From IMG/VR virus record IMGVR_UViG_3300045988_119023, positions 32,471-96,470 of that record: DNA of 64,000 bases; one strand, 5' to 3'. Both the position numbers and the translations under genes were made by a program. How positions within the stretch are numbered: position 1 is the stretch's first letter; each line of letters starts with the position of its first letter. This document shows, piece by piece, positions 4,449-45,607 of this stretch. Source of the DNA: a virus. The notes beneath the pieces are model-generated. The model did no database searches, was not told the origin of the DNA, and was given only the letters and a program-made list of their open reading frames with translations.

Positions 4449-6687
4449 ATCAGATTGGAAGCCCTCAGAAAATATCCTAAAATATTTGAAATCGTGGGAA
4501 AAGTTCGAGCCTGAATTATATGACGACAAGAAGGGAAATATAACAATCGGGTACGGATTTCATCTTCCTCATCTTCTTAAAAAATACAAGAATGGTATAA
4601 CAGTAGAAGAGGCCGATAAGGAATTTGAAGGTGTAGTTAATACGTTTGTTCCGGAATTTATACGAAGAACTCCTAATTTCAAAAATCTAAACAATAATCA
4701 GCGAGATGCTTTGTTTAGTTTGTTTTACAACACAGGAGGATCAGAGTATTCTAAAAGCCCAATGCTTTTCAAATACCTTAAAGAAGGTGATTATGATAAG
4801 GCAGTGAAAGAAATAAACCACAATGAAAACGAGAAAGGTATGGGCGGTCAGAAGAAGCGCCGTGCCTTCGAGCGCCGGGTGTTCTCTACGCCAACAGACC
4901 AGCCTTGGACGGTAGACGACGACAGTAATTATGTCTTGGTTGAAGACAAGCCTGTAGAGGACGAATCTATAGAAAAAGATACTAATGATTCAAAGTATGA
5001 AGACGCTCGCCATGTGGAAGCTAAATATGGTTATACAGGTTATGTAGGTAGAGGATATGACGGAAATAAGGTCAGGGTATCTGATTCGAATATGAAATCA
5101 GTTGGTATCTCCAATAACGCTGATCCTAATAAGTGGTATGAATCCGTTAATCCAATATTAGACACTGATCCTATTAGTTTAATGGTCGATTTTATTCCTA
5201 CTGTGAAACGAATGTTGGATCCTAACAGGGAGAGATCAGGGGAAGATACAGCCACAGATTTTGAAGAGAAAATGTGGAAGGCTTACACGGATGGAGATAT
5301 AAGTAGATTACCGGCAAGCAAGTATCGTTTTGATGACGATGATGATGATGCTCAGTATGTAGGATTGCCTCAAGAACAAGCTATTTTGATACAATCTTTA
5401 TTAGATAAAGAGTATATGAACAACATGCTTGACAAAGCATATAAGGATGCTGATGAAAAAAGTAAACGAAAAATAAGAGATTACAAGAAGGTCCTTAATA
5501 AACTAAATAAAAATATATTTGAAAATCCAGGAAAATGGATTTTAGTAAATGAAGGTGTAAGTCCGTTTAGAGAAGAAGTATATGGTGACAATTTTGAAAA
5601 AGTAAACGAAGCTTCAGGATTAGGTGCGTTGAAGAATTTCAGCGTAAGATGGGATCCGGATGCTGGTATGTTGGATGTGAAGGATGATTATGATTTTAGC
5701 CGAAAGAAGATAGCAGAAGACATCATACCGGAAAGGGATGTCCCTCTTAGAATAAGGGAACGTATCAAATACGATCCTAAGAAAGGTAGTGTGCTTCGAA
5801 ATAATGACAAGGCTTTACCTAAAAGGTTTGTAAGGAAATACGAAGAAGGTGGCGTAGTTGGCAAGCAGCGTGAAGCATATGAATACTTTACTAATAAGCG
5901 TGGCATGTCCAAGATACAGGCGCTCGCCATCATAGGTAACCTCATGGCTGAATCCGGCCTTAAAGATGACATATACGGAGACAACAGAACATCATACGGC
6001 ATACAGCAATGGCATAATGAGCGCATGGATAAGTTGTTCAAGCACGCCAAAAAGAAAGGTCATTCTACACCAACATTCAAAGACCAACTTGAGTTCTTGG
6101 CTGACGAATACGAAGGGAAAACCGGATATTCTAATTTCTTATACACAAGAAAAGGAAAAGAAGGACCAGGGTATTACAACTACAGCCGGCAGGATTTTAT
6201 GAACGCCGATAACCTTAAGGATGCTGTAGTAGCTTGGAACCAAGGAGCAGGACGTCCTCATAAGAGTGTTATAAGAAATGATGACCGTTATGACTATGCT
6301 ATGGAAGTTGCTAAAAATCTTGGTTTGGAAATTGAAGAAAATTCCGTATCTTTGTATGGTCAAATGGGATTCGGAGATGATGGAGAAATAGCAGCATCGG
6401 TAACACTTCCAGAGGTAGAAGTGGCAGCCGCCCTCCCTTACCCGGAAGCCCAGTCCCAGGAGAGACAGTCCGAGGAAGAGAGATTCCGTACATGGACTGA
6501 AACGTATGGTAAAGACATCGTAAATCATTTACTGACGTTAGACGGGAAAAAGGATGGTGATGACAGTGATTACAGCATGATGTATAGACAGCATGAAAAA
6601 GAAAGCGAAGAGGATAAGAAAATGGCTTTGATTAATGCCGTGCTTCCCAATATTCAGCTTCGCATTAAAGGCGTCACTGATAATTAG
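4432..6687 (+). CDS. Virion-associated peptidoglycan hydrolase with two lytic domains: an N-terminal GH24 T4/lambda-type lysozyme and a central phage tail-lysozyme-like domain.
   Basis: Domain 1: SWEKFEPELYDDKKGNITIGYGFHL matches the E...D...T catalytic pattern of T4 lysozyme. Domain 2: GNLMAESGLKDDIYGDNRTSYGIQQWHNERMDKLFKHAKKKG resembles the phage tail lysozyme family (GNxxxESGxxxxxxGDxGxSxGxxQW). A strong AAGGAGGAGG sits before the ATG at 4432. Confidence 0.75.
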   Translation: MTKKNKSDWKPSENILKYLKSWEKFEPELYDDKKGNITIGYGFHLPHLLKKYKNGITVEEADKEFEGVVNTFVPEFIRRTPNFKNLNNNQRDALFSLFYNTGGSEYSKSPMLFKYLKEGDYDKAVKEINHNENEKGMGGQKKRRAFERRVFSTPTDQPWTVDDDSNYVLVEDKPVEDESIEKDTNDSKYEDARHVEAKYGYTGYVGRGYDGNKVRVSDSNMKSVGISNNADPNKWYESVNPILDTDPISLMVDFIPTVKRMLDPNRERSGEDTATDFEEKMWKAYTDGDISRLPASKYRFDDDDDDAQYVGLPQEQAILIQSLLDKEYMNNMLDKAYKDADEKSKRKIRDYKKVLNKLNKNIFENPGKWILVNEGVSPFREEVYGDNFEKVNEASGLGALKNFSVRWDPDAGMLDVKDDYDFSRKKIAEDIIPERDVPLRIRERIKYDPKKGSVLRNNDKALPKRFVRKYEEGGVVGKQREAYEYFTNKRGMSKIQALAIIGNLMAESGLKDDIYGDNRTSYGIQQWHNERMDKLFKHAKKKGHSTPTFKDQLEFLADEYEGKTGYSNFLYTRKGKEGPGYYNYSRQDFMNADNLKDAVVAWNQGAGRPHKSVIRNDDRYDYAMEVAKNLGLEIEENSVSLYGQMGFGDDGEIAASVTLPEVEVAAALPYPEAQSQERQSEEERFRTWTETYGKDIVNHLLTLDGKKDGDDSDYSMMYRQHEKESEEDKKMALINAVLPNIQLRIKGVTDN

Positions 6688-6721
6688 AACAATTATTTTA
6701 TTTCTCATATTAATAAAGCGA

Positions 6722-6792
6722 AGCCGGATTTGAGACTCGTTATGCGGATACCGAAGGTTGAAGAACGATATCGAAATAATCCGGCTTTTTTG
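6722..6792 (+). terminator. Structured terminator candidate with a long-range stem.
   Basis: AGCCGGATT ... AATCCGGCT, 9 bp perfect with a 47-nt spacer, followed by TTTTTTG. Confidence 0.4.
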
Positions 6793-6947
6793 TGCGATTT
6801 CGTGAGGGATGGAACTATCATCGCCTTGGTTGGACGGAACAGACCTACGTACTTTCACTGTCCTGACAGGCATGGGCGCCCGTCTCGCCTACTCCCTGCC
6901 TAATTCTCCACTGGCTACCTAATATAACTATTAACGTCACTCCATCA

Positions 6948-32438: not shown

Positions 32439-32744
32439 ATGTATAATAAAGAAATAGTAATATGCGCGGCTATCTGGGTGCAGGACGGCAAGAAGCGTCC
32501 TCATCAGCCCACCAATATACCATCCGGCGCCGTATTTTGTGGATTGAGACATTGTTCTATCATTTCTCAGTTTGCGGCATACGGTATAGCTCATAAAAAC
32601 CGCAGTGTTCAAGGATTTTTGACAAGCAAGAACCGGTTTCTGACGAGAGAAGAAGCGTCTGAGCTTGTTAAGAACAATAATCAGGAGATGGTAGTAGATA
32701 GGAATGCTATTAGAGAACAATTGTATTCCGAAGATTTATATTAA
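32439..32744 (+). CDS. Hypothetical protein (101 aa).
   Basis: ORF immediately 3' of iscB. Confidence 0.4.
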   Translation: MYNKEIVICAAIWVQDGKKRPHQPTNIPSGAVFCGLRHCSIISQFAAYGIAHKNRSVQGFLTSKNRFLTREEASELVKNNNQEMVVDRNAIREQLYSEDLY

Positions 32745-34120: not shown

Positions 34121-37100
34121 ATGGTATCAACGTGTATTATTAAAAGAGATAATAAAAAGAAAGTTGTTTCTGTCTCTACCAGATCAGGGGACAGGTCTAT
34201 GTTATTCGATAAGATAGCATCTATTCCTCTTATGGAAAATAGGGAACGGGCTACTACTGTTTTTAAAACCGTATTTTCTAATAAGTTCTTAAAGGCTTTT
34301 GGTGACTGGAGAAGGAATGTGCCTATCAACAAACAGGCTTACAATAAGGTAAAATCTAACATCGGCCTTATTCCAGAGACCTATAGAGAAAGGGTGCTGG
34401 ATAAGGCTTCTAAGATGAGCAACCCTATTCTTGTGTCGAAATCAGATGCACCTTATGGGATTCAAGAATCAGGCTTTGGATTCTATAGCCAAGATCTGGG
34501 TGATAATATTATGTTGGTGGATGCTATGGTTCCGTCAAGTATCTCCGTGCCGGAAGAACCAGGAATAGACTCAGGGCAGTATCTACAAGATGCTATATCT
34601 TCGGACTTCACTCCCGTATCTATGGTACAGGATAATGATGTTAATTATATGGTTATAAAAGACGGTCTTAAGATATTTAGTCCAGAAGAGCTACCAGAAA
34701 CAGATTCTAATCCTGTGGGTGTAACGTATCAGACTGGAGAACCTCGTTTGTTTTTTATGAATGATCGTAATCAATTATTTGAAGATTACGGAGAAGCTCT
34801 TCGCTCTGGCGGGAATGATATCAGAATAGGATTCTTATCTGGCACCGTTCAAGAATCTGCCTGGGATGGCGTGGCAGACATTACTTACAAGGCTGGAAAG
34901 TATGTCCTTAACAACCCCAAATCTTTTATACCTGTTATGACCGCCTCTGCTTCCACTTCTTTATCAACAAAAGGTGGGATAATAAACTACCTTATAAAGA
35001 AAGGTCTTTTGTCAGGATCCAAGATATTCGATCCGGAAACAAGAAGCTATTATCTTACAGGAGAAGGACATGCAGGACAAATTAGACTTTTCAATTCAGC
35101 CTTAGCTTATACCGAACTTCGTAATCATTTCGGTTCTGATGTTTCCATGAATGATCAAGGCATGATAACCATAAATTCATTGGATAATAGTAAGGTGACT
35201 ATGAGACTCGCCACCGGAGGAACAGAAAGAGTTAGCAAGGAGCAGATAAAGAGCGATCTTAAGTCTGGAAGATACAATGAATTGGATGCTAAATACGATC
35301 ACTTTGATGCGCTTGTAGTTTCATTTATATTAGAAGACAATGATCTTTATGCTGATACTAAAGCTAAGATAGTATCGGATTATAGCCAAGAGGAACGTAA
35401 TCAACGAAATTCTATTGTTGAGATACTGAAAACGCTGGGCGTTAGTGTCGTTGGCATGACCGATTATATAGAGAAGTACCAAACTAAATACGGACACGAA
35501 CCTTCTGCTAAAGCATTGGCGGATATTGCCAATAACGTAATAGCAGTCGGTGAAGATGCTACTTTGTCTGACTTAGTAGAAGAAACAGCCCACTTCCTTG
35601 TAGAGGCGTACAGAGATCAGAATGCTGTTGAATCTGTTTTGCAAGACGTAGAAGGCACTGAAGAATGGAATCAGTATGCAAATCAGTATTATAATACATA
35701 CGGTAAGGTATATGAAGGAACTGAACTTGACAATGTAGTTAGGAAAGAAATTCTTGGAAAGATCCTTGCCAGGGAGATGCAGGACAGAACGGCGCCCATA
35801 GAGCCCACCTCCTTCCTGGGACGCGTCCGGCAGCTTCTCTCTGGAATCGTAAACTGGCTTAAATCAGCTTTATCTACCCAAAGACAAGATTTGAATAACG
35901 TTATTAAAAACATTCGTGATCTTGCTATTACCGACATAGATAAAGGATTTGATACTTCTCTTTTAAAGGATAATGATTTTACATTATACTCTCTTTCCTC
36001 TATGAACAAGAACAAGTTTCTTGAGTCTAAGATCCGGGCATTGAGAAAAACATTGAGAGACTTACGTCAGATAAGCTCTGATAGGGCTGTAACTACATCT
36101 ATGACCCTTGCTCAACTTAAGACCATAGAAGATAAGATAAATAAGGTAGAGACCGAAATAGACAAAAATGAGATGGCGGCTGCCATGAATAGCATGATCT
36201 CCACAGCCGAAGCTCAGGTCAGATACTTAAGCAATGTAGTAAATACTATCCTTCATGGTGATACCAAAGACGGTAAACTTCATTTCAATACCAATGATCG
36301 AAAGAACGTAGATATTATCAACAATCAGGTTCTTCCGATCATGAACGATCTTCGAGGATATATCCGTAACAGAAGTACCGAATTTGACGAACGTGAAAAG
36401 CAAGATTATACAAATAGGATCAATACCGTCATTGCCGACATCAATGGTATTCAGTCTGATATTAAATCAGTACAAGATCTTGATGAAAGTACGTTGCTTG
36501 ACAAGTTAATGAACGAACTTCATGTGCCGGCAGATAAGGTAAAGAAAGTAAAAGAGTTCTTTGATAAAGTCCAACACGATGTGTCCTGGATAAGTAGGTG
36601 GTTTGGTATATTAGAACATTCTTCCAGCCCGTTTAATAACGCTCTTGGAGCTATGATTGCCAAAGACAATTATAATGCGATGGTGAATGCCCAGCCAGCC
36701 ATATCCGACTTCCTGGCATATGCGAAAAAACATGGTTTCAATAAATCTGAATTTGAAAAACTGCTTCAGAAAGTAGACGGCAAGACTTCTAATTATCTTC
36801 GTAGTGCTCTTGATATGGCTAAATACGATCGTAATAAGAAGCTGGCGCAGATGCGAGCGTTTGCAACTGCCATGAACATAGAGATATCAGAAGAAGAAAT
36901 CAATGATGTGGTTGACAATAACCGTAATTATGTGTTTAAAAGAGAAGTAGTTGACAAGGACGGAAATACGGTTACTGAGAACGCTAAATTTAAACCTTCT
37001 TCTGATAGGGTTAATACCGACATCTTTACCATCGAGCAGGAAAGGATTTATACAGAACAGATGGAGAAGTGGGATGCTGAAAATTCAGAACTGGAATTTA

Positions 37101-42782: not shown

Positions 42783-43525
42783 GATCGTTCCTCCTTATTT
42801 TTAGATTCTGCTTCTTCGAGTATGCTAATTACTTTGTCAACAATATCTGAATCGGACATTTTCTCAATAAAAACATCCATCGCCTTAGTTATGTCATTGG
42901 CTTCTTTTTCTTCAAGAGCTATTTCTCCACCGGTAATAGCATCAGATAATGATGTAGATAAGTGTCTTATCTTATCAATGTTCATAAACGTAAATGGATT
43001 ACCACCTTGACCTCCACCCATTTCTTTCATGATCTGATATCCACCTGAGATAAGTCTGCCTGATGTCGTGGCCAAGGAGGATACGATAAGGGCCAGGACC
43101 GCCGCTTCCGTCCGCTCCTCAGACACACCCTTCGACCACACGGCTGCCCTTATAGCGCCAGCCAGGTTGTCTATGTATGGCATGAGGCAGTCTTCCATAA
43201 CTTGTGTTGTATCAGCTATAACCTCACTACGCTCTTTATTTATGTAGTAGATAGAAGCATTGTACCTCTTTATCTCTTTGTCCATATCATTTAAAAGACG
43301 CTTGATATTGTGCTTATACATAGGACTGGTTTTAATTACTTCCTTTAGCTTAAGAATGTAATTATAAGCCTGGTCGTTTACGAACAACGTCATGGTCTCA
43401 ACCGTTGAATGAAGCGTGTTAAGACTGTTAAGAATCTTATCGAAATTGTTTATCAAATAAGCTCTTCTGGCTTTTGCTGCGTAGTTAATGTTATTAAAAT
43501 TATTCATTTTATTCATTAGATTCAA
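42779..43525 (-). CDS. Hypothetical protein (248 aa).
   Basis: ORF. Confidence 0.45.
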   Translation of the reverse strand: MNLMNKMNNFNNINYAAKARRAYLINNFDKILNSLNTLHSTVETMTLFVNDQAYNYILKLKEVIKTSPMYKHNIKRLLNDMDKEIKRYNASIYYINKERSEVIADTTQVMEDCLMPYIDNLAGAIRAAVWSKGVSEERTEAAVLALIVSSLATTSGRLISGGYQIMKEMGGGQGGNPFTFMNIDKIRHLSTSLSDAITGGEIALEEKEANDITKAMDVFIEKMSDSDIVDKVISILEEAESKNKEERS

Positions 43526-43532
43526 CCTTATA

Positions 43533-44722
43533 TCACAAAATATTTATTCTAACCGGATTAAACACAAATCCACTATCGATTATCTTTCCAATGAAAGAAT
43601 CACCGACTACTTTTCTTGCTATTCCTATAGCTCCATTAATATCAGCATTAATTAGCTTTCCAACGGAACTTTGGAATAATCCACGTTTCTTTCTTTTCCC
43701 TAAATAGGATTCTTGTTTCTTTAGAGGTTCAAAAGCAAGATGGTCAATCTTTGATGTGTAAGATTCCTCATGAGTAATTACCTCTATCCCTAAAAGATTT
43801 GCTTTGTAAACAATCTTATCAATCAATTTAGAATGAGGAATAGAAACAAAATGTTGGTTATTCCTTTTACCGATATTTATCTCGTTTTTCCATTCTTTGT
43901 TTAATCCAATGATGATTGTTCCTATATTGTTAGATTTACAAAAGTCTACAATGTATCTACTGATTTTATGCAATTTGTCTTCTATCCAACAATTTCTAAA
44001 CAAAGTAATTCTTCTTATTCTATTTGAAGTTCCCTTATTACCAACAAAAGACATCAACTTAGCTTTCTTCTTATTGTACCACTGATTTACTGATTTCATA
44101 ACCCGTCCGTTTATAATGAAAGAATTAGTTTCTACATTACTAATACATGAACATAAATTATTCAATCCTAAATCAATCGAAAGAAAATTGTCTTTGTTTA
44201 AACCAAGATCAGTTTCCTTTCTTTCATAAACTACCTCTACTACATAACATGTAGTAGAGGGATTATTCTAACTTGTTTTAGTTCGTCTTTCTTTACATTT
44301 GTTTTGATAGGTTTGATTATATCTTTGACAAAATGAATATGATTATCATCTTTTACCCTGCAATCACAGTTGGTAAAAACAACCATGTTTTGTTTCTTAC
44401 CTTGTTTGTATGATGGAAGGTGAGGTCTATGATTTCCGTATTTAGAAGGATTCTTTTCAAAATCCTTCTTGAGTTTTATCCAGGATTTTATGTTTTTAAA
44501 TACCTGTTTAATCACCTGTTGGGATACATGATTAGGTAAATTCCTGAAATCGAATTGGTTTTCTTTGCAAAGTTTGTTTGATAAATCAAATTCCTTTAAA
44601 TAGTTACCTGAAAAGATTCCTTGACGGATATTGTAAAGAACATAATTATATAACAAGCCGGATTTGAAGCAAATATCCTCAAACCGGTTGTCTTTAACTA
44701 TATGCCTTTCAACTAATCTCAT
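43533..44722 (-). pseudogene. tnpB: TnpB-like (IS605 OrfB family) RuvC nuclease split by a -1 frameshift into an N-terminal 160-aa ORF and a C-terminal 210-aa ORF. The C-terminal part lacks the usual zinc-finger cysteines.
   Basis: N-terminal part has the TnpB-like pattern SQQVIKQVFKNIKSWIKLKKDF ... HRPHLPSYKQGKK. The -1 frame continues through YVVEVVYE ... IDLGLNNL (RuvC-I). C-terminal part has HEESYTSK (RuvC-II Glu) and NADINGAIGIARK (RuvC-III Asp). There are no CxxC pairs between RuvC-II and RuvC-III. Confidence 0.7.
44234..44260. repeat. Perfect 12-bp stem hairpin exactly at the TnpB frame junction.
   Basis: CCTCTACTACAT aac ATGTAGTAGAGG. It covers the stop codon of the N-terminal tnpB fragment. 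Confidence 0.6.
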
Positions 44723-45018
44723 TTGAATGATTTATATCGTAAATGTAATCGTTATTTGTAAAATAATCAAATTATTCAATCATCGCATTTAAATTTTAGA
44801 TTTTCAAGTTCGTGTATTTGCAACTTAAGAGACTTAATTAAATCCGTTCTCTGTTCCTCTACATATTTTAAAGCTTCTTCTTCACTTTTAAAAGCTTGAT
44901 ACCCCATCGTATAAGGAGTGAACCGGTCAGGGGTGTCGGCTAATAAAGTACCATCATAATCTTCTATTTTAGCTTTTACTTTTCTTATCTTACCATCTTG
45001 CAGACATGTGTCTGTAAT

Positions 45019-45297
45019 TCACACAAATGTATCATACATTTCTTCATATAATTCATACCATTCTGGTTTAGGAAATCTTAATGTAAATCTAATCTCGGTA
45101 TCTTTTTCTAAGACATTAATATCATACGCCTCCGGCCACAATTCTTTTATGCTGTCTTCATCTTCAGCATACGCCACCAATACAAATGAATTACTGGATT
45201 CTGCACTACACCAATATGGATATTTTATAGGCCATTTGACTGGACGGTAATCATTGTTACAGTCATCCTTTCTAATGTAAAATCTTGCTTTAATCAT
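45019..45297 (-). CDS. Hypothetical protein.
   Basis: ORF. Confidence 0.4.
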   Translation of the reverse strand: MIKARFYIRKDDCNNDYRPVKWPIKYPYWCSAESSNSFVLVAYAEDEDSIKELWPEAYDINVLEKDTEIRFTLRFPKPEWYELYEEMYDTFV

Positions 45298-45298
45298 G

Positions 45299-45607
45299 TT
45301 ATTCTACTTTTTTGATTTCGCTTAAATCGTCTTCATGCACCAAATAAGATCCTCTTCCCGGTCTTCCTTCTTTATTAACTTCCTGGATTGTAAATATAAC
45401 TGTTCCAGGACTCATGATTTGCACGCTCTTAAAAAAACCAACAAGAGGCTCTTTCGAACGTTTGTAAAAAACGCTCACTTTATCTCCCTTCTTTAACCCA
45501 TAAACAGAATCGAAATACTCTTTTTTGATTCTATCAATATTGTCTTTATGATTTCTTATAGCACGAAGCTCTTTTTCCCATAAATAATTTAGCTGTTCTT
45601 TTGTCAT
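45299..45607 (-). CDS. Hypothetical protein.
   Basis: ORF. Confidence 0.4.
   Translation of the reverse strand: MTKEQLNYLWEKELRAIRNHKDNIDRIKKEYFDSVYGLKKGDKVSVFYKRSKEPLVGFFKSVQIMSPGTVIFTIQEVNKEGRPGRGSYLVHEDDLSEIKKVE

Follow-up and report, generated by a model that had tools for sequence, protein, structure and literature searches.

A tnpB-only IS200/IS605-type element of a human-gut phage, its nuclease gene very probably inactivated by a recent palindrome-making mutation

Introduction

The TnpB proteins of ISDra2 and ISFba1, for which structures have been solved (PDB 8h1j, 8exa, 8iaz), are the reference for the locus described here, a tnpB-only element of the IS200/IS605 type whose nuclease gene is split by a frameshift. 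It lies in a 64,000-nt stretch of viral DNA (positions 32,471 to 96,470 of the IMG/VR record IMGVR_UViG_3300045988_119023), referred to throughout, at its full length, as the window. The family to which the window gene belongs has the fold and the D-E-D RuvC catalytic triad of the ISDra2 and ISFba1 enzymes. The elements also share an arrangement: the gene is at the 3' side, a putative structured RNA spans the gene 3' end and the right end and is followed by a possible guide flank, and insertion occurs beside a short conserved motif with no evident target duplication. The family differs from this reference in that it lacks the C4 zinc finger, has no tnpA in the element and resides in phages, while the window gene in particular is frameshifted; sequence identity to the solved TnpBs is only 13–16%. 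In makeup the element matches the tnpB-only “IS1341-like” derivatives of IS200/IS605, which have nothing but tnpB between a left end and a right end, and copies of it are found at about 22 insertion sites.

Two further sets of observations are pertinent. Loss of the C4 zinc finger has been reported for some large TnpB branches (Altae-Tran et al. 2023, PMC10691335). Quasi-palindrome mutation through template switching is an established class of event whose mechanism has been reviewed (PMC7202029). In work on E. coli reporters, yeast and primates (PMC7202029, PMC3820800, PMC7954356), an inverted repeat that was imperfect is made perfect by clustered changes templated by the other arm. The sequence change at the present locus has the same form; here it causes a frameshift, and the allele is a natural one, found among phages that have not been cultured.

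We propose that the window carries a recently inactivated copy of the element, in which one palindrome-making mutation both split tnpB and created the hairpin on the junction. That this is damage and not regulation we regard as very probable.

The split tnpB gene and the palindrome at its junction

Sequences are given 5' to 3' on the minus strand, in window coordinates, unless marked otherwise. The features of the split gene are:

44240..44722, minus strand: ORF1 (open reading frame 1), the N-terminal fragment of tnpB, 160 aa, with the first WED strands and the helical part of REC
43533..44267, minus strand: C-terminal frame of tnpB, with the rest of WED, RuvC-I, RuvC-II and RuvC-III, and a TNB segment without a zinc finger
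44234..44260, both strands: perfect palindrome CCTCTACTACAT-gtt-ATGTAGTAGAGG, with 12/12 arms and a 3-nt loop, carrying the ORF1 stop
44255..44256, minus strand: lesion, TA for AAG of the siblings (one substitution and a 1-nt deletion, from an alignment of 23 same-site copies)

An earlier note, made from the letters of the sequence, had described two adjacent minus-strand ORFs as one TnpB interrupted by a −1 frame change with an overlap of about 25 nt. The observation is real: Pfam and NCBIfam models match the N- and C-terminal parts, and the frame relation can be read directly in the window. ORF1 ends in ...QVRIIPLLHVM-TAG (KQVRIIPLLHVM-TAG), and its final five residues, LLHVM, are aberrant, the intact siblings having IIPQATCYVVE there. 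The second frame opens at 44267, after a TAG at 44270-44268, and closes at the TGA at 43535-43533; it is −1 with respect to ORF1 and overlaps it by 25 nt (44267-44243). Its translation begins NNPSTTCYVVEVVYERKETDLGLNKDNFLSIDLGL, reads on through YVVEVVYERKETDLGLNKDNFLSIDLGLNN and then HEESYTSK and NADINGAIGIA, and continues up to the TGA. A net loss of 1 nt at codon 155/156 divides the gene, which, unlike a normal TnpB gene, is not a single ORF.

The second frame contains no ATG, GTG or TTG from 44267 to the codon of the RuvC-I aspartate (SIDLGL, 44174-44172), and its first usable start, a TTG at 44165, lies downstream of that codon. The RuvC-I aspartate can therefore be reached only through a change of frame, as the earlier note had stated for the whole motif. 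Recoding of the ORF1 stop was considered and rejected: if TAG is read as Gln through the junction, a TAA is met 15 codons later, so the ORF is not rescued. No suppressor tRNA gene, and no tRNA gene of any kind, was found in the window.

The hairpin described on the first stop codon is likewise as claimed. Its arms (44234-44245 and 44249-44260) are complementary at 12 of 12 positions, the ORF1 stop (44242-44240) lies within one of them, and no other perfect 12-bp hairpin with separate arms occurs in the 64-kb window. As RNA it is predicted to fold at −17.3 kcal/mol (z = −5.4 against shuffles). It is followed by TAGTTTAT, and the region 44234-44260 is flagged as terminator-like on both strands; if the new hairpin terminates transcription, output of omega-RNA from the tnpB transcript could drop too.

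Ancestral and derived alleles

Homologous loci were taken from viral contigs (80 loci on gut phage contigs of 80–160 kb, representing about 22 insertion sites, 21 of the loci sharing the site of the window). In the alignment of 23 same-site copies, 20 have AAG at the junction and a single ORF, and three, the window and the copies L083 and L084, have TA. The intact siblings read CCTC-AAG-CTACAT-GTT-ATGTAGTAGAGG, and the window reads CCTC-TA-CTACAT-GTT-ATGTAGTAGAGG. All 20 intact copies contain CCTCAAGCTACATGTTATGTAGTAGAGG (IIPQATCYVVEVVYE) where the other three have CCTCTA-CTACAT. In the longer context, intact ATAATCCCTC-AAG-CTACATGTTATGTAGTAGAGGTAG, which encodes IIPQATCYVVEVV, corresponds to ATAATCCCTC-TA-CTACATGTT in the window.

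The ancestral sequence is an imperfect inverted repeat, CCTC-AAG-CTACAT gtt ATGTAG-TA-GAGG, predicted to fold as ((((..(((((((...))))))).)))), that is, 4 bp, an internal loop and 7 bp, at −11.2 kcal/mol. The right arm is unaltered, and the substitution and the deletion are exactly what the left arm needed to become its reverse complement. Both marks of a quasi-palindrome mutation are present: an imperfect repeat in the ancestor, and changes that are all templated by the opposite arm.

This signature points to the following history. The ancestral tnpB coding sequence held the imperfect inverted repeat, and a single templated event would have rewritten its left arm from its right arm, either by a template switch during replication or by correction within an extruded hairpin; the event may have belonged to replication or to recombinational repair. 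The change of AAG to TA perfected the 12-bp palindrome and removed one nucleotide, and this loss explains both the −1 relation of the frames and the stop inside the palindrome, where translation ends after residue 160. The C-terminal two thirds of the protein are left with no start upstream of the RuvC-I aspartate, for which reason the nuclease of the window copy is most likely dead. The ends of the element and its RNA scaffold are untouched by the mutation.

Programmed expression, artefact or split enzyme

The earlier note had offered a frameshift-regulated or structured-RNA-regulated nuclease as one reading, in which a programmed −1 ribosomal frameshift, or control of expression by the hairpin, would give a low yield of full-length TnpB. 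The −1 relation with its 25-nt overlap, the strength of the hairpin (−17.3 kcal/mol) and the fact that many contigs carry the allele and that it has not decayed further would all suit such a mechanism. The overlap region itself does not. Its ORF1-frame codons, AGA ATA ATC CCT CTA CTA CAT GTT ATG TAG, include neither an X XXY YYZ heptamer nor a long homopolymer. The stem (44260-44234) starts 7 nt after the −1 frame opens and covers nearly all of the overlap, so that it occupies the shift site and the stop codon instead of lying 5–9 nt downstream.

Comparison with homologous loci, which the earlier note had suggested as a check on conservation, also argues against regulation. The orthologues are uninterrupted: single ORFs are found in 20 of the 23 same-site copies and in essentially the whole family, with an uninterrupted frame of 394–396 aa at 77 of the 80 viral loci. 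The repaired protein has 7,816 homologues, and among the matches listed nearly all are 394–396 aa long. The hairpin is not conserved in the family, and even its weaker ancestral form is not kept family-wide, about half of its wobble-position pairs being broken; copies of the L024 type fold at only −6.9 kcal/mol (z = −0.55), and those of the L063 type keep the hairpin with paired changes (−16.1 kcal/mol). Codons 141–180 and their surroundings show no extra synonymous constraint. Taken with the missing heptamer and the position of the stem, these comparisons make programmed expression very unlikely. Selection on the imperfect ancestral hairpin was considered separately and rejected, as some lineages break it and local synonymous variability is ordinary.

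A sequencing indel, another of the readings offered, would mean that the 1-nt loss and the palindrome arose in vitro, by polymerase template switching in amplification or by a consensus error at the hairpin, and that the true genome is intact. The window does come from a metagenome scaffold, and the two records 100% identical to it, L085 (ENA ERZ28659958, ZEEV15-1_SAMEA3664650 scaffold_120) and L086 (Logan ERR1136852), may derive from the same sample and possibly from the same reads. A relative, MT835500.1 (L001), has lost one A in an A-run of tnpB, a likely homopolymer error or mutation. Against this stands the recurrence of the exact 36-nt junction in the IMG/VR contigs 3300045988_099418 and 3300045988_118731, in which the surrounding 4.3 kb is 92.7% identical to the window, a flank divergence of 7%, and the element differs from that of the window by 14 single-nucleotide polymorphisms (SNPs). 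By exact-sequence look-up, the truncated ORF1 of the L083/L084 type, which is that of 099418 and 118731, is present on 26 contigs from four repositories (NCBI, JGI, Logan, ENA), and the variant of the window on 2 contigs. Furthermore, 20 assemblies of the same quasi-palindrome came out intact, so it is not systematically misread. The junction thus belongs to a real allele that circulates in divergent phage genomes, and an artefact is more improbable still than programmed expression.

A functional split enzyme, in which active TnpB would form from the N-terminal piece of 160 aa and a C-terminal piece translated on its own, is the least credible alternative: the break falls in a β-hairpin turn between model strands 148–155 and 160–167, where splits are sometimes tolerated, and neither piece has other lesions, but the first start (TTG 44165) drops the RuvC-I aspartate, so that the C-terminal piece would lack a catalytic residue, the gene caller's start (188-aa product) drops more, no ribosome-binding arrangement was noted at the start of the C-terminal piece, and the same-site copies L030 (nonsense) and L070 (7-nt insertion) are broken at unrelated places, as in random decay.

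Age and status of the window copy

Apart from the junction, the L083/L084 allele differs from the intact copy L004 by one SNP in about 1,290 aligned nt, which marks the lesion as young, and the window copy has no further indels or stops. A decaying IS605 remnant, the third reading of the earlier note, therefore comes closest of the three, provided that it is understood as a copy that lost its function recently and is otherwise undamaged. For annotation purposes the split TnpB should be labelled a pseudogene.

Several points weigh against our reading of a single damaging event. The mutational mechanism is deduced from the sequence signature. The window differs from the L083/L084 allele at 14 positions and from intact alleles at 13, which suits one origin followed by gene conversion as well as two independent events at a hot spot. 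With 26 contigs for one variant, the frameshift allele is fairly common, and it has acquired no second lesion, a pattern that would also fit a tolerated or even useful state, and low-level frameshifting or a two-piece enzyme may still be compatible with the sequence.

A tract of the window gene at 44327-44374 (minus strand) has ten SNPs within 48 nt that are found only in the window among same-site copies and that match copies at other sites (L019, L020 and the protein P0004). This agreement indicates gene conversion between paralogous elements, and the tract looks like the product of such an event.

Other damaged copies were also seen. L030 has a Trp-to-stop change and L070 a 7-nt insertion, both at the site of the window, and P0276 is a 231-aa truncated form present on 7 contigs. 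With MT835500.1, these copies broken elsewhere suggest that occasional decay of tnpB is normal. In addition, the RuvC-I Asp of L072 is replaced by Gly (SIGLGL).

Membership in the TnpB family

The window gene is a TnpB by descent, albeit a broken copy, as judged from its sequence relationships. In Pfam, the second frame matches OrfB_IS605 at 2.5e-18 and Cas12f1-like_TNB at 3e-8; PF01385 and PF07282 are the models matched. The NCBIfam model guided_TnpB (NF040570) is covered by ORF1 at profile positions 19–165 and by the second frame at 176–389. The second frame scores 130.8 bits and the intact sibling P0001 155.1 bits, with a cut-off of 100. A profile of the family matches AsCas12f in the PDB at 5e-15.

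The RuvC triad of the window consists of the aspartate of SIDLGL (44174-44172), the glutamate of HEESYTSK (43770-43765) and the aspartate of NADINGA (43643-43641). For the latter two motifs this agrees with the earlier note, which had described this Glu and Asp as intact. In a family alignment of 77 sequences, D184 and D361 never vary, and conservation of E320 is 90% or higher. An AlphaFold model was made of an intact sibling, not of the broken window gene (predicted local distance difference test score, pLDDT, 92). Foldseek matched this model to AsCas12f (2.5e-17), ISFba1 TnpB (9.6e-13) and ISDra2 TnpB (3.8e-12), with template modelling (TM) scores of 0.56–0.63; the sibling is accordingly predicted to adopt the WED-REC-RuvC-TNB fold.

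The family is found almost entirely in viruses. Among 185,579 species genomes of bacteria and archaea only 2 loci were detected, one on a Vibrio olivae contig and one in a Neisseriaceae metagenome-assembled genome, and the same scan identified neither a bacterial host nor a transposase, and thus no complete element with tnpA.

A clade without the zinc finger

One segment of the C-terminal frame is of particular note:

43650..43749, minus strand: Cys-free segment at the position of the C4 zinc finger, IDHLAFEPLKKQESYLGKRKKRGLFQSSVGKLI, placed by profile alignment to AsCas12f

The window encodes no Cys between the ESYTSK and NADINGA motifs, and in the alignment of the family profile with AsCas12f the stretch “kcsald...FksstgK” falls opposite “RCSECG...KCRACG”. 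This alignment bears out the proposal that the CxxC...CxxC zinc finger has been replaced by a Cys-free segment. The segment is Cys-free in 116 of 120 close homologues, and it contains 0–2 Cys in all 131 scorable representatives of a 50% clustering, down to about 37% identity. Because the whole clade shares the loss to this depth, it is not a sign of decay; it is an old loss common to a clade whose TnpB is in other respects canonical, with the D-E-D triad.

Since the zinc finger is also missing in large published branches, its absence still allows membership in TnpB, and the window family fits the description of the zinc-finger-less branches (PMC10691335). One major clade of this kind named in the main text of that paper, RIIIr-4, has the RuvC-III Asp replaced by His. 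The window family keeps NADxNGA and is therefore not RIIIr-4 by the criterion of the RuvC-III Asp.

The element, its ends and its insertion site

The gene lies within a mobile element whose parts are:

43489..44779, minus strand: whole mobile element, tnpB-only, IS200/IS605-type, about 1,291 nt, delimited by comparison with an empty site
44723..44779, minus strand: left end and 5' untranslated part, 57 nt, starting TTGAATAATTTG, where similarity across sites begins
43489..43532, minus strand: right end after the stop, 44 nt, ending in AATAATTTTAATAACA, conserved at 23 sites and followed by divergent sequence
44780..44784, minus strand: candidate target-adjacent motif (TAM) GATGA, directly 5' of the left end, family consensus KATRR

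The element lies between two genes of a human-gut phage of about 150 kb related to csAssE-Sib (OR575929.1), which has the empty site; a search of the literature on csAssE-Sib found nothing relevant. In csAssE-Sib, GATGA is followed directly by TTAATTACGCGGC, and in the window GATGA is followed by the element (TTGAATAA to AATAACA) and then by TTAACTACGCAGC. Over a wider span, TACGATGA joined to TTAATTACGCGGCAAAAGCC in csAssE-Sib corresponds in the window to GCGATGA, an element running from TTGAATAATTTG to AATAATTTTAATAACA, and then TTAACTACGCAGCAAAAGCC. ATT repeats at both junctions make the boundaries uncertain by up to 3 nt, and comparison of the empty and occupied sites shows no target duplication beyond this 1–3-nt ambiguity. 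Empty sites for three other insertion sites were sought in IMG/VR with exact and gapped patterns, and none matched; the placement of the boundaries and of the recreated start codon described below therefore rests on csAssE-Sib and the multi-site comparison.

The left and right ends are common to copies at about 22 insertion sites and are unrelated to each other in sequence. Across the family, 44–46 nt after the tnpB stop are conserved, ending in TTTTAATAAC(A/G)T, and the flanks diverge beyond; MT835500.1 shares the right end up to window position 43488 and is different thereafter. Insertion 3' of a short motif, the lack of duplication and the asymmetric ends are all as in IS200/IS605 elements. 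No ORF for TnpA (Y1 transposase) lies within the element, the only part of the window to which this negative applies. The window contains one TnpB copy only.

At about 20 other sites the 5' flanks read GATGG, TATAG, TATGG, TATGA or GATAG, and the motif often includes the ATG of a gene. KATRR is thus a candidate TAM. The left end contains short AT-rich palindromes such as AATAAT-ttg-ATTATT. Elsewhere in the window, a palindrome, TTTGAATAACGTTATTAAAA, at 35890-35914 resembles the terminal motif of the right end, TTTTAATAACGT (minus strand); it may be a solo end or a binding site, or the resemblance may be due to chance.

A putative omega-RNA and its guide

Two further features concern the RNA that would accompany the nuclease:

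43489..43606, minus strand: putative omega-RNA scaffold, five conserved helices in the last approximately 70 nt of the ORF, the stop and the right end
43469..43488, minus strand: candidate omega-RNA guide flank, TTAACTACGCAGCAAAAGCC, where the body of the downstream gene also begins

It had been argued that no room exists for a 3' omega-RNA because the next gene starts 8 nt downstream. That start, a TTG at 43525, lies inside the right end of the element, which reaches 44–46 nt beyond the stop; the 3' end of the ORF is itself part of a set of covarying helices. The conserved helices and the extent of the right end thus provide the room. RNAalifold was applied to 23 aligned copies, from about 22 sites, of the final 230 nt of the ORF together with the right end. 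The five helices, at window positions 43606-43515, have 96.4% of cells paired, compared with 32–48% when the partners are slid. Double changes occur in 32 cells, against 13.8 in shuffles, and none of 500 shuffles reached this number. Synonymous variability is lower over the final 36 codons. No Rfam family matched 43300-44900 in a scan at an E-value threshold. The covariation, in an arrangement that overlaps the gene end and the right end, suggests that this structure is a 3' omega-RNA, which would be expressed from the element.

By analogy with the way in which TnpB systems work (PMC10097598, PMC13565253), the flank from 43488 downward may serve as the guide. The corresponding site of csAssE-Sib (L002, approximately 5167-5186, minus strand) differs from the candidate guide of the window at 43469-43488 in 2 of the first 10 positions (TTAATTACGCGG versus TTAACTACGCAG), and it is conceivable, as speculation, that these mismatches could reduce homing into csAssE-Sib. 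TnpB-dependent homing has been put forward as a concept (PMC13565253), and spread of the element between phages by this route is possible.

A second structured region may exist in the middle of the gene. The RuvC-I coding sequence at 44079-44179 (minus strand) is under the strongest synonymous constraint of the gene, at codons 181–240 (normalised codon entropy 0.24–0.44, compared with about 0.7 elsewhere). The constraint coincides with a hairpin of about 100 nt (44179-44079). In 20 members taken from separate sites its pairing reaches 99%, and two of its pairs show compensatory changes; its minimum free energy as a single sequence has a z-score of only −1.65. The 11-mer at the beginning of the left end, TTGAATAATTT, recurs in this stretch at 44165-44155.

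Neighbouring genes

The last base of the right end and a T(G/T/A) flank together form a junction codon (ATG, GTG or ATT). At 15 of 23 sites this codon begins an ORF of 64 codons or more, and the other two frames at the junction almost never do so. In the window, in-frame ATGs at 43516 and 43507 of the right end now head the downstream gene, whose original ATG was left on the left side of the element. Overlap of a stop and a start (TAG/TG, TGA/TG) was considered as a general target and rejected, as it is true at only 3 sites (L063, L020, L018).

The upstream neighbour has an in-frame TGA at 45019-45021 (minus strand) where six relatives, including L083 and L084, have TGG (Trp). This TGA is private to the window phage and splits a 180-aa ORF, present in csAssE-Sib and the sibling phages, into ORFs of 92 aa and 43 aa. 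In csAssE-Sib, a DNA cytosine-5 methyltransferase gene (5723-6850) lies between the homologues of the window genes at 45019-45297 and 45299-45607, and the window has none there. This difference identifies the neighbourhood as a variable region.

Implications

A broader interpretation can be entertained, in which the family is specialised for phage genomes and inserts silently at gene starts, the frameshift allele reflects repeated “disarming” of the nuclease at a mutational hot spot, and the mid-gene hairpin is a further RNA element. We consider it tentative and on balance doubtful. If it were true, insertion would occur at the first codons of phage genes, beside a KATRR motif that often contains the ATG of the gene, and the right end, ...AAC(A/G), together with a flanking TG or TT, would recreate an in-frame start or second codon, many members having further in-frame ATGs upstream. 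Recreation of the codon would make the insertions phenotypically silent, and phages would tolerate or even favour a disarmed nuclease.

For annotation, the split TnpB of the window should be taken neither for a frameshift-regulated enzyme nor for a zinc-finger-less novelty, and the start that ORF callers assign to the downstream gene lies inside the right end. The locus is a clean natural example of a quasi-palindrome mutation, with ancestral and derived alleles both sampled in a wild phage population. The wider family counts thousands of intact TnpBs that reside in phages and lack the zinc finger; its right end can be defined, and it has candidates for a TAM and an omega-RNA. It may be of interest for the mining of compact RNA-guided nucleases and for the question of how selfish elements coexist with dense phage genomes. 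The current understanding of TnpB is unchanged by these observations, which are of interest chiefly for the mutational example and for the seat of the family on the starts of phage genes.

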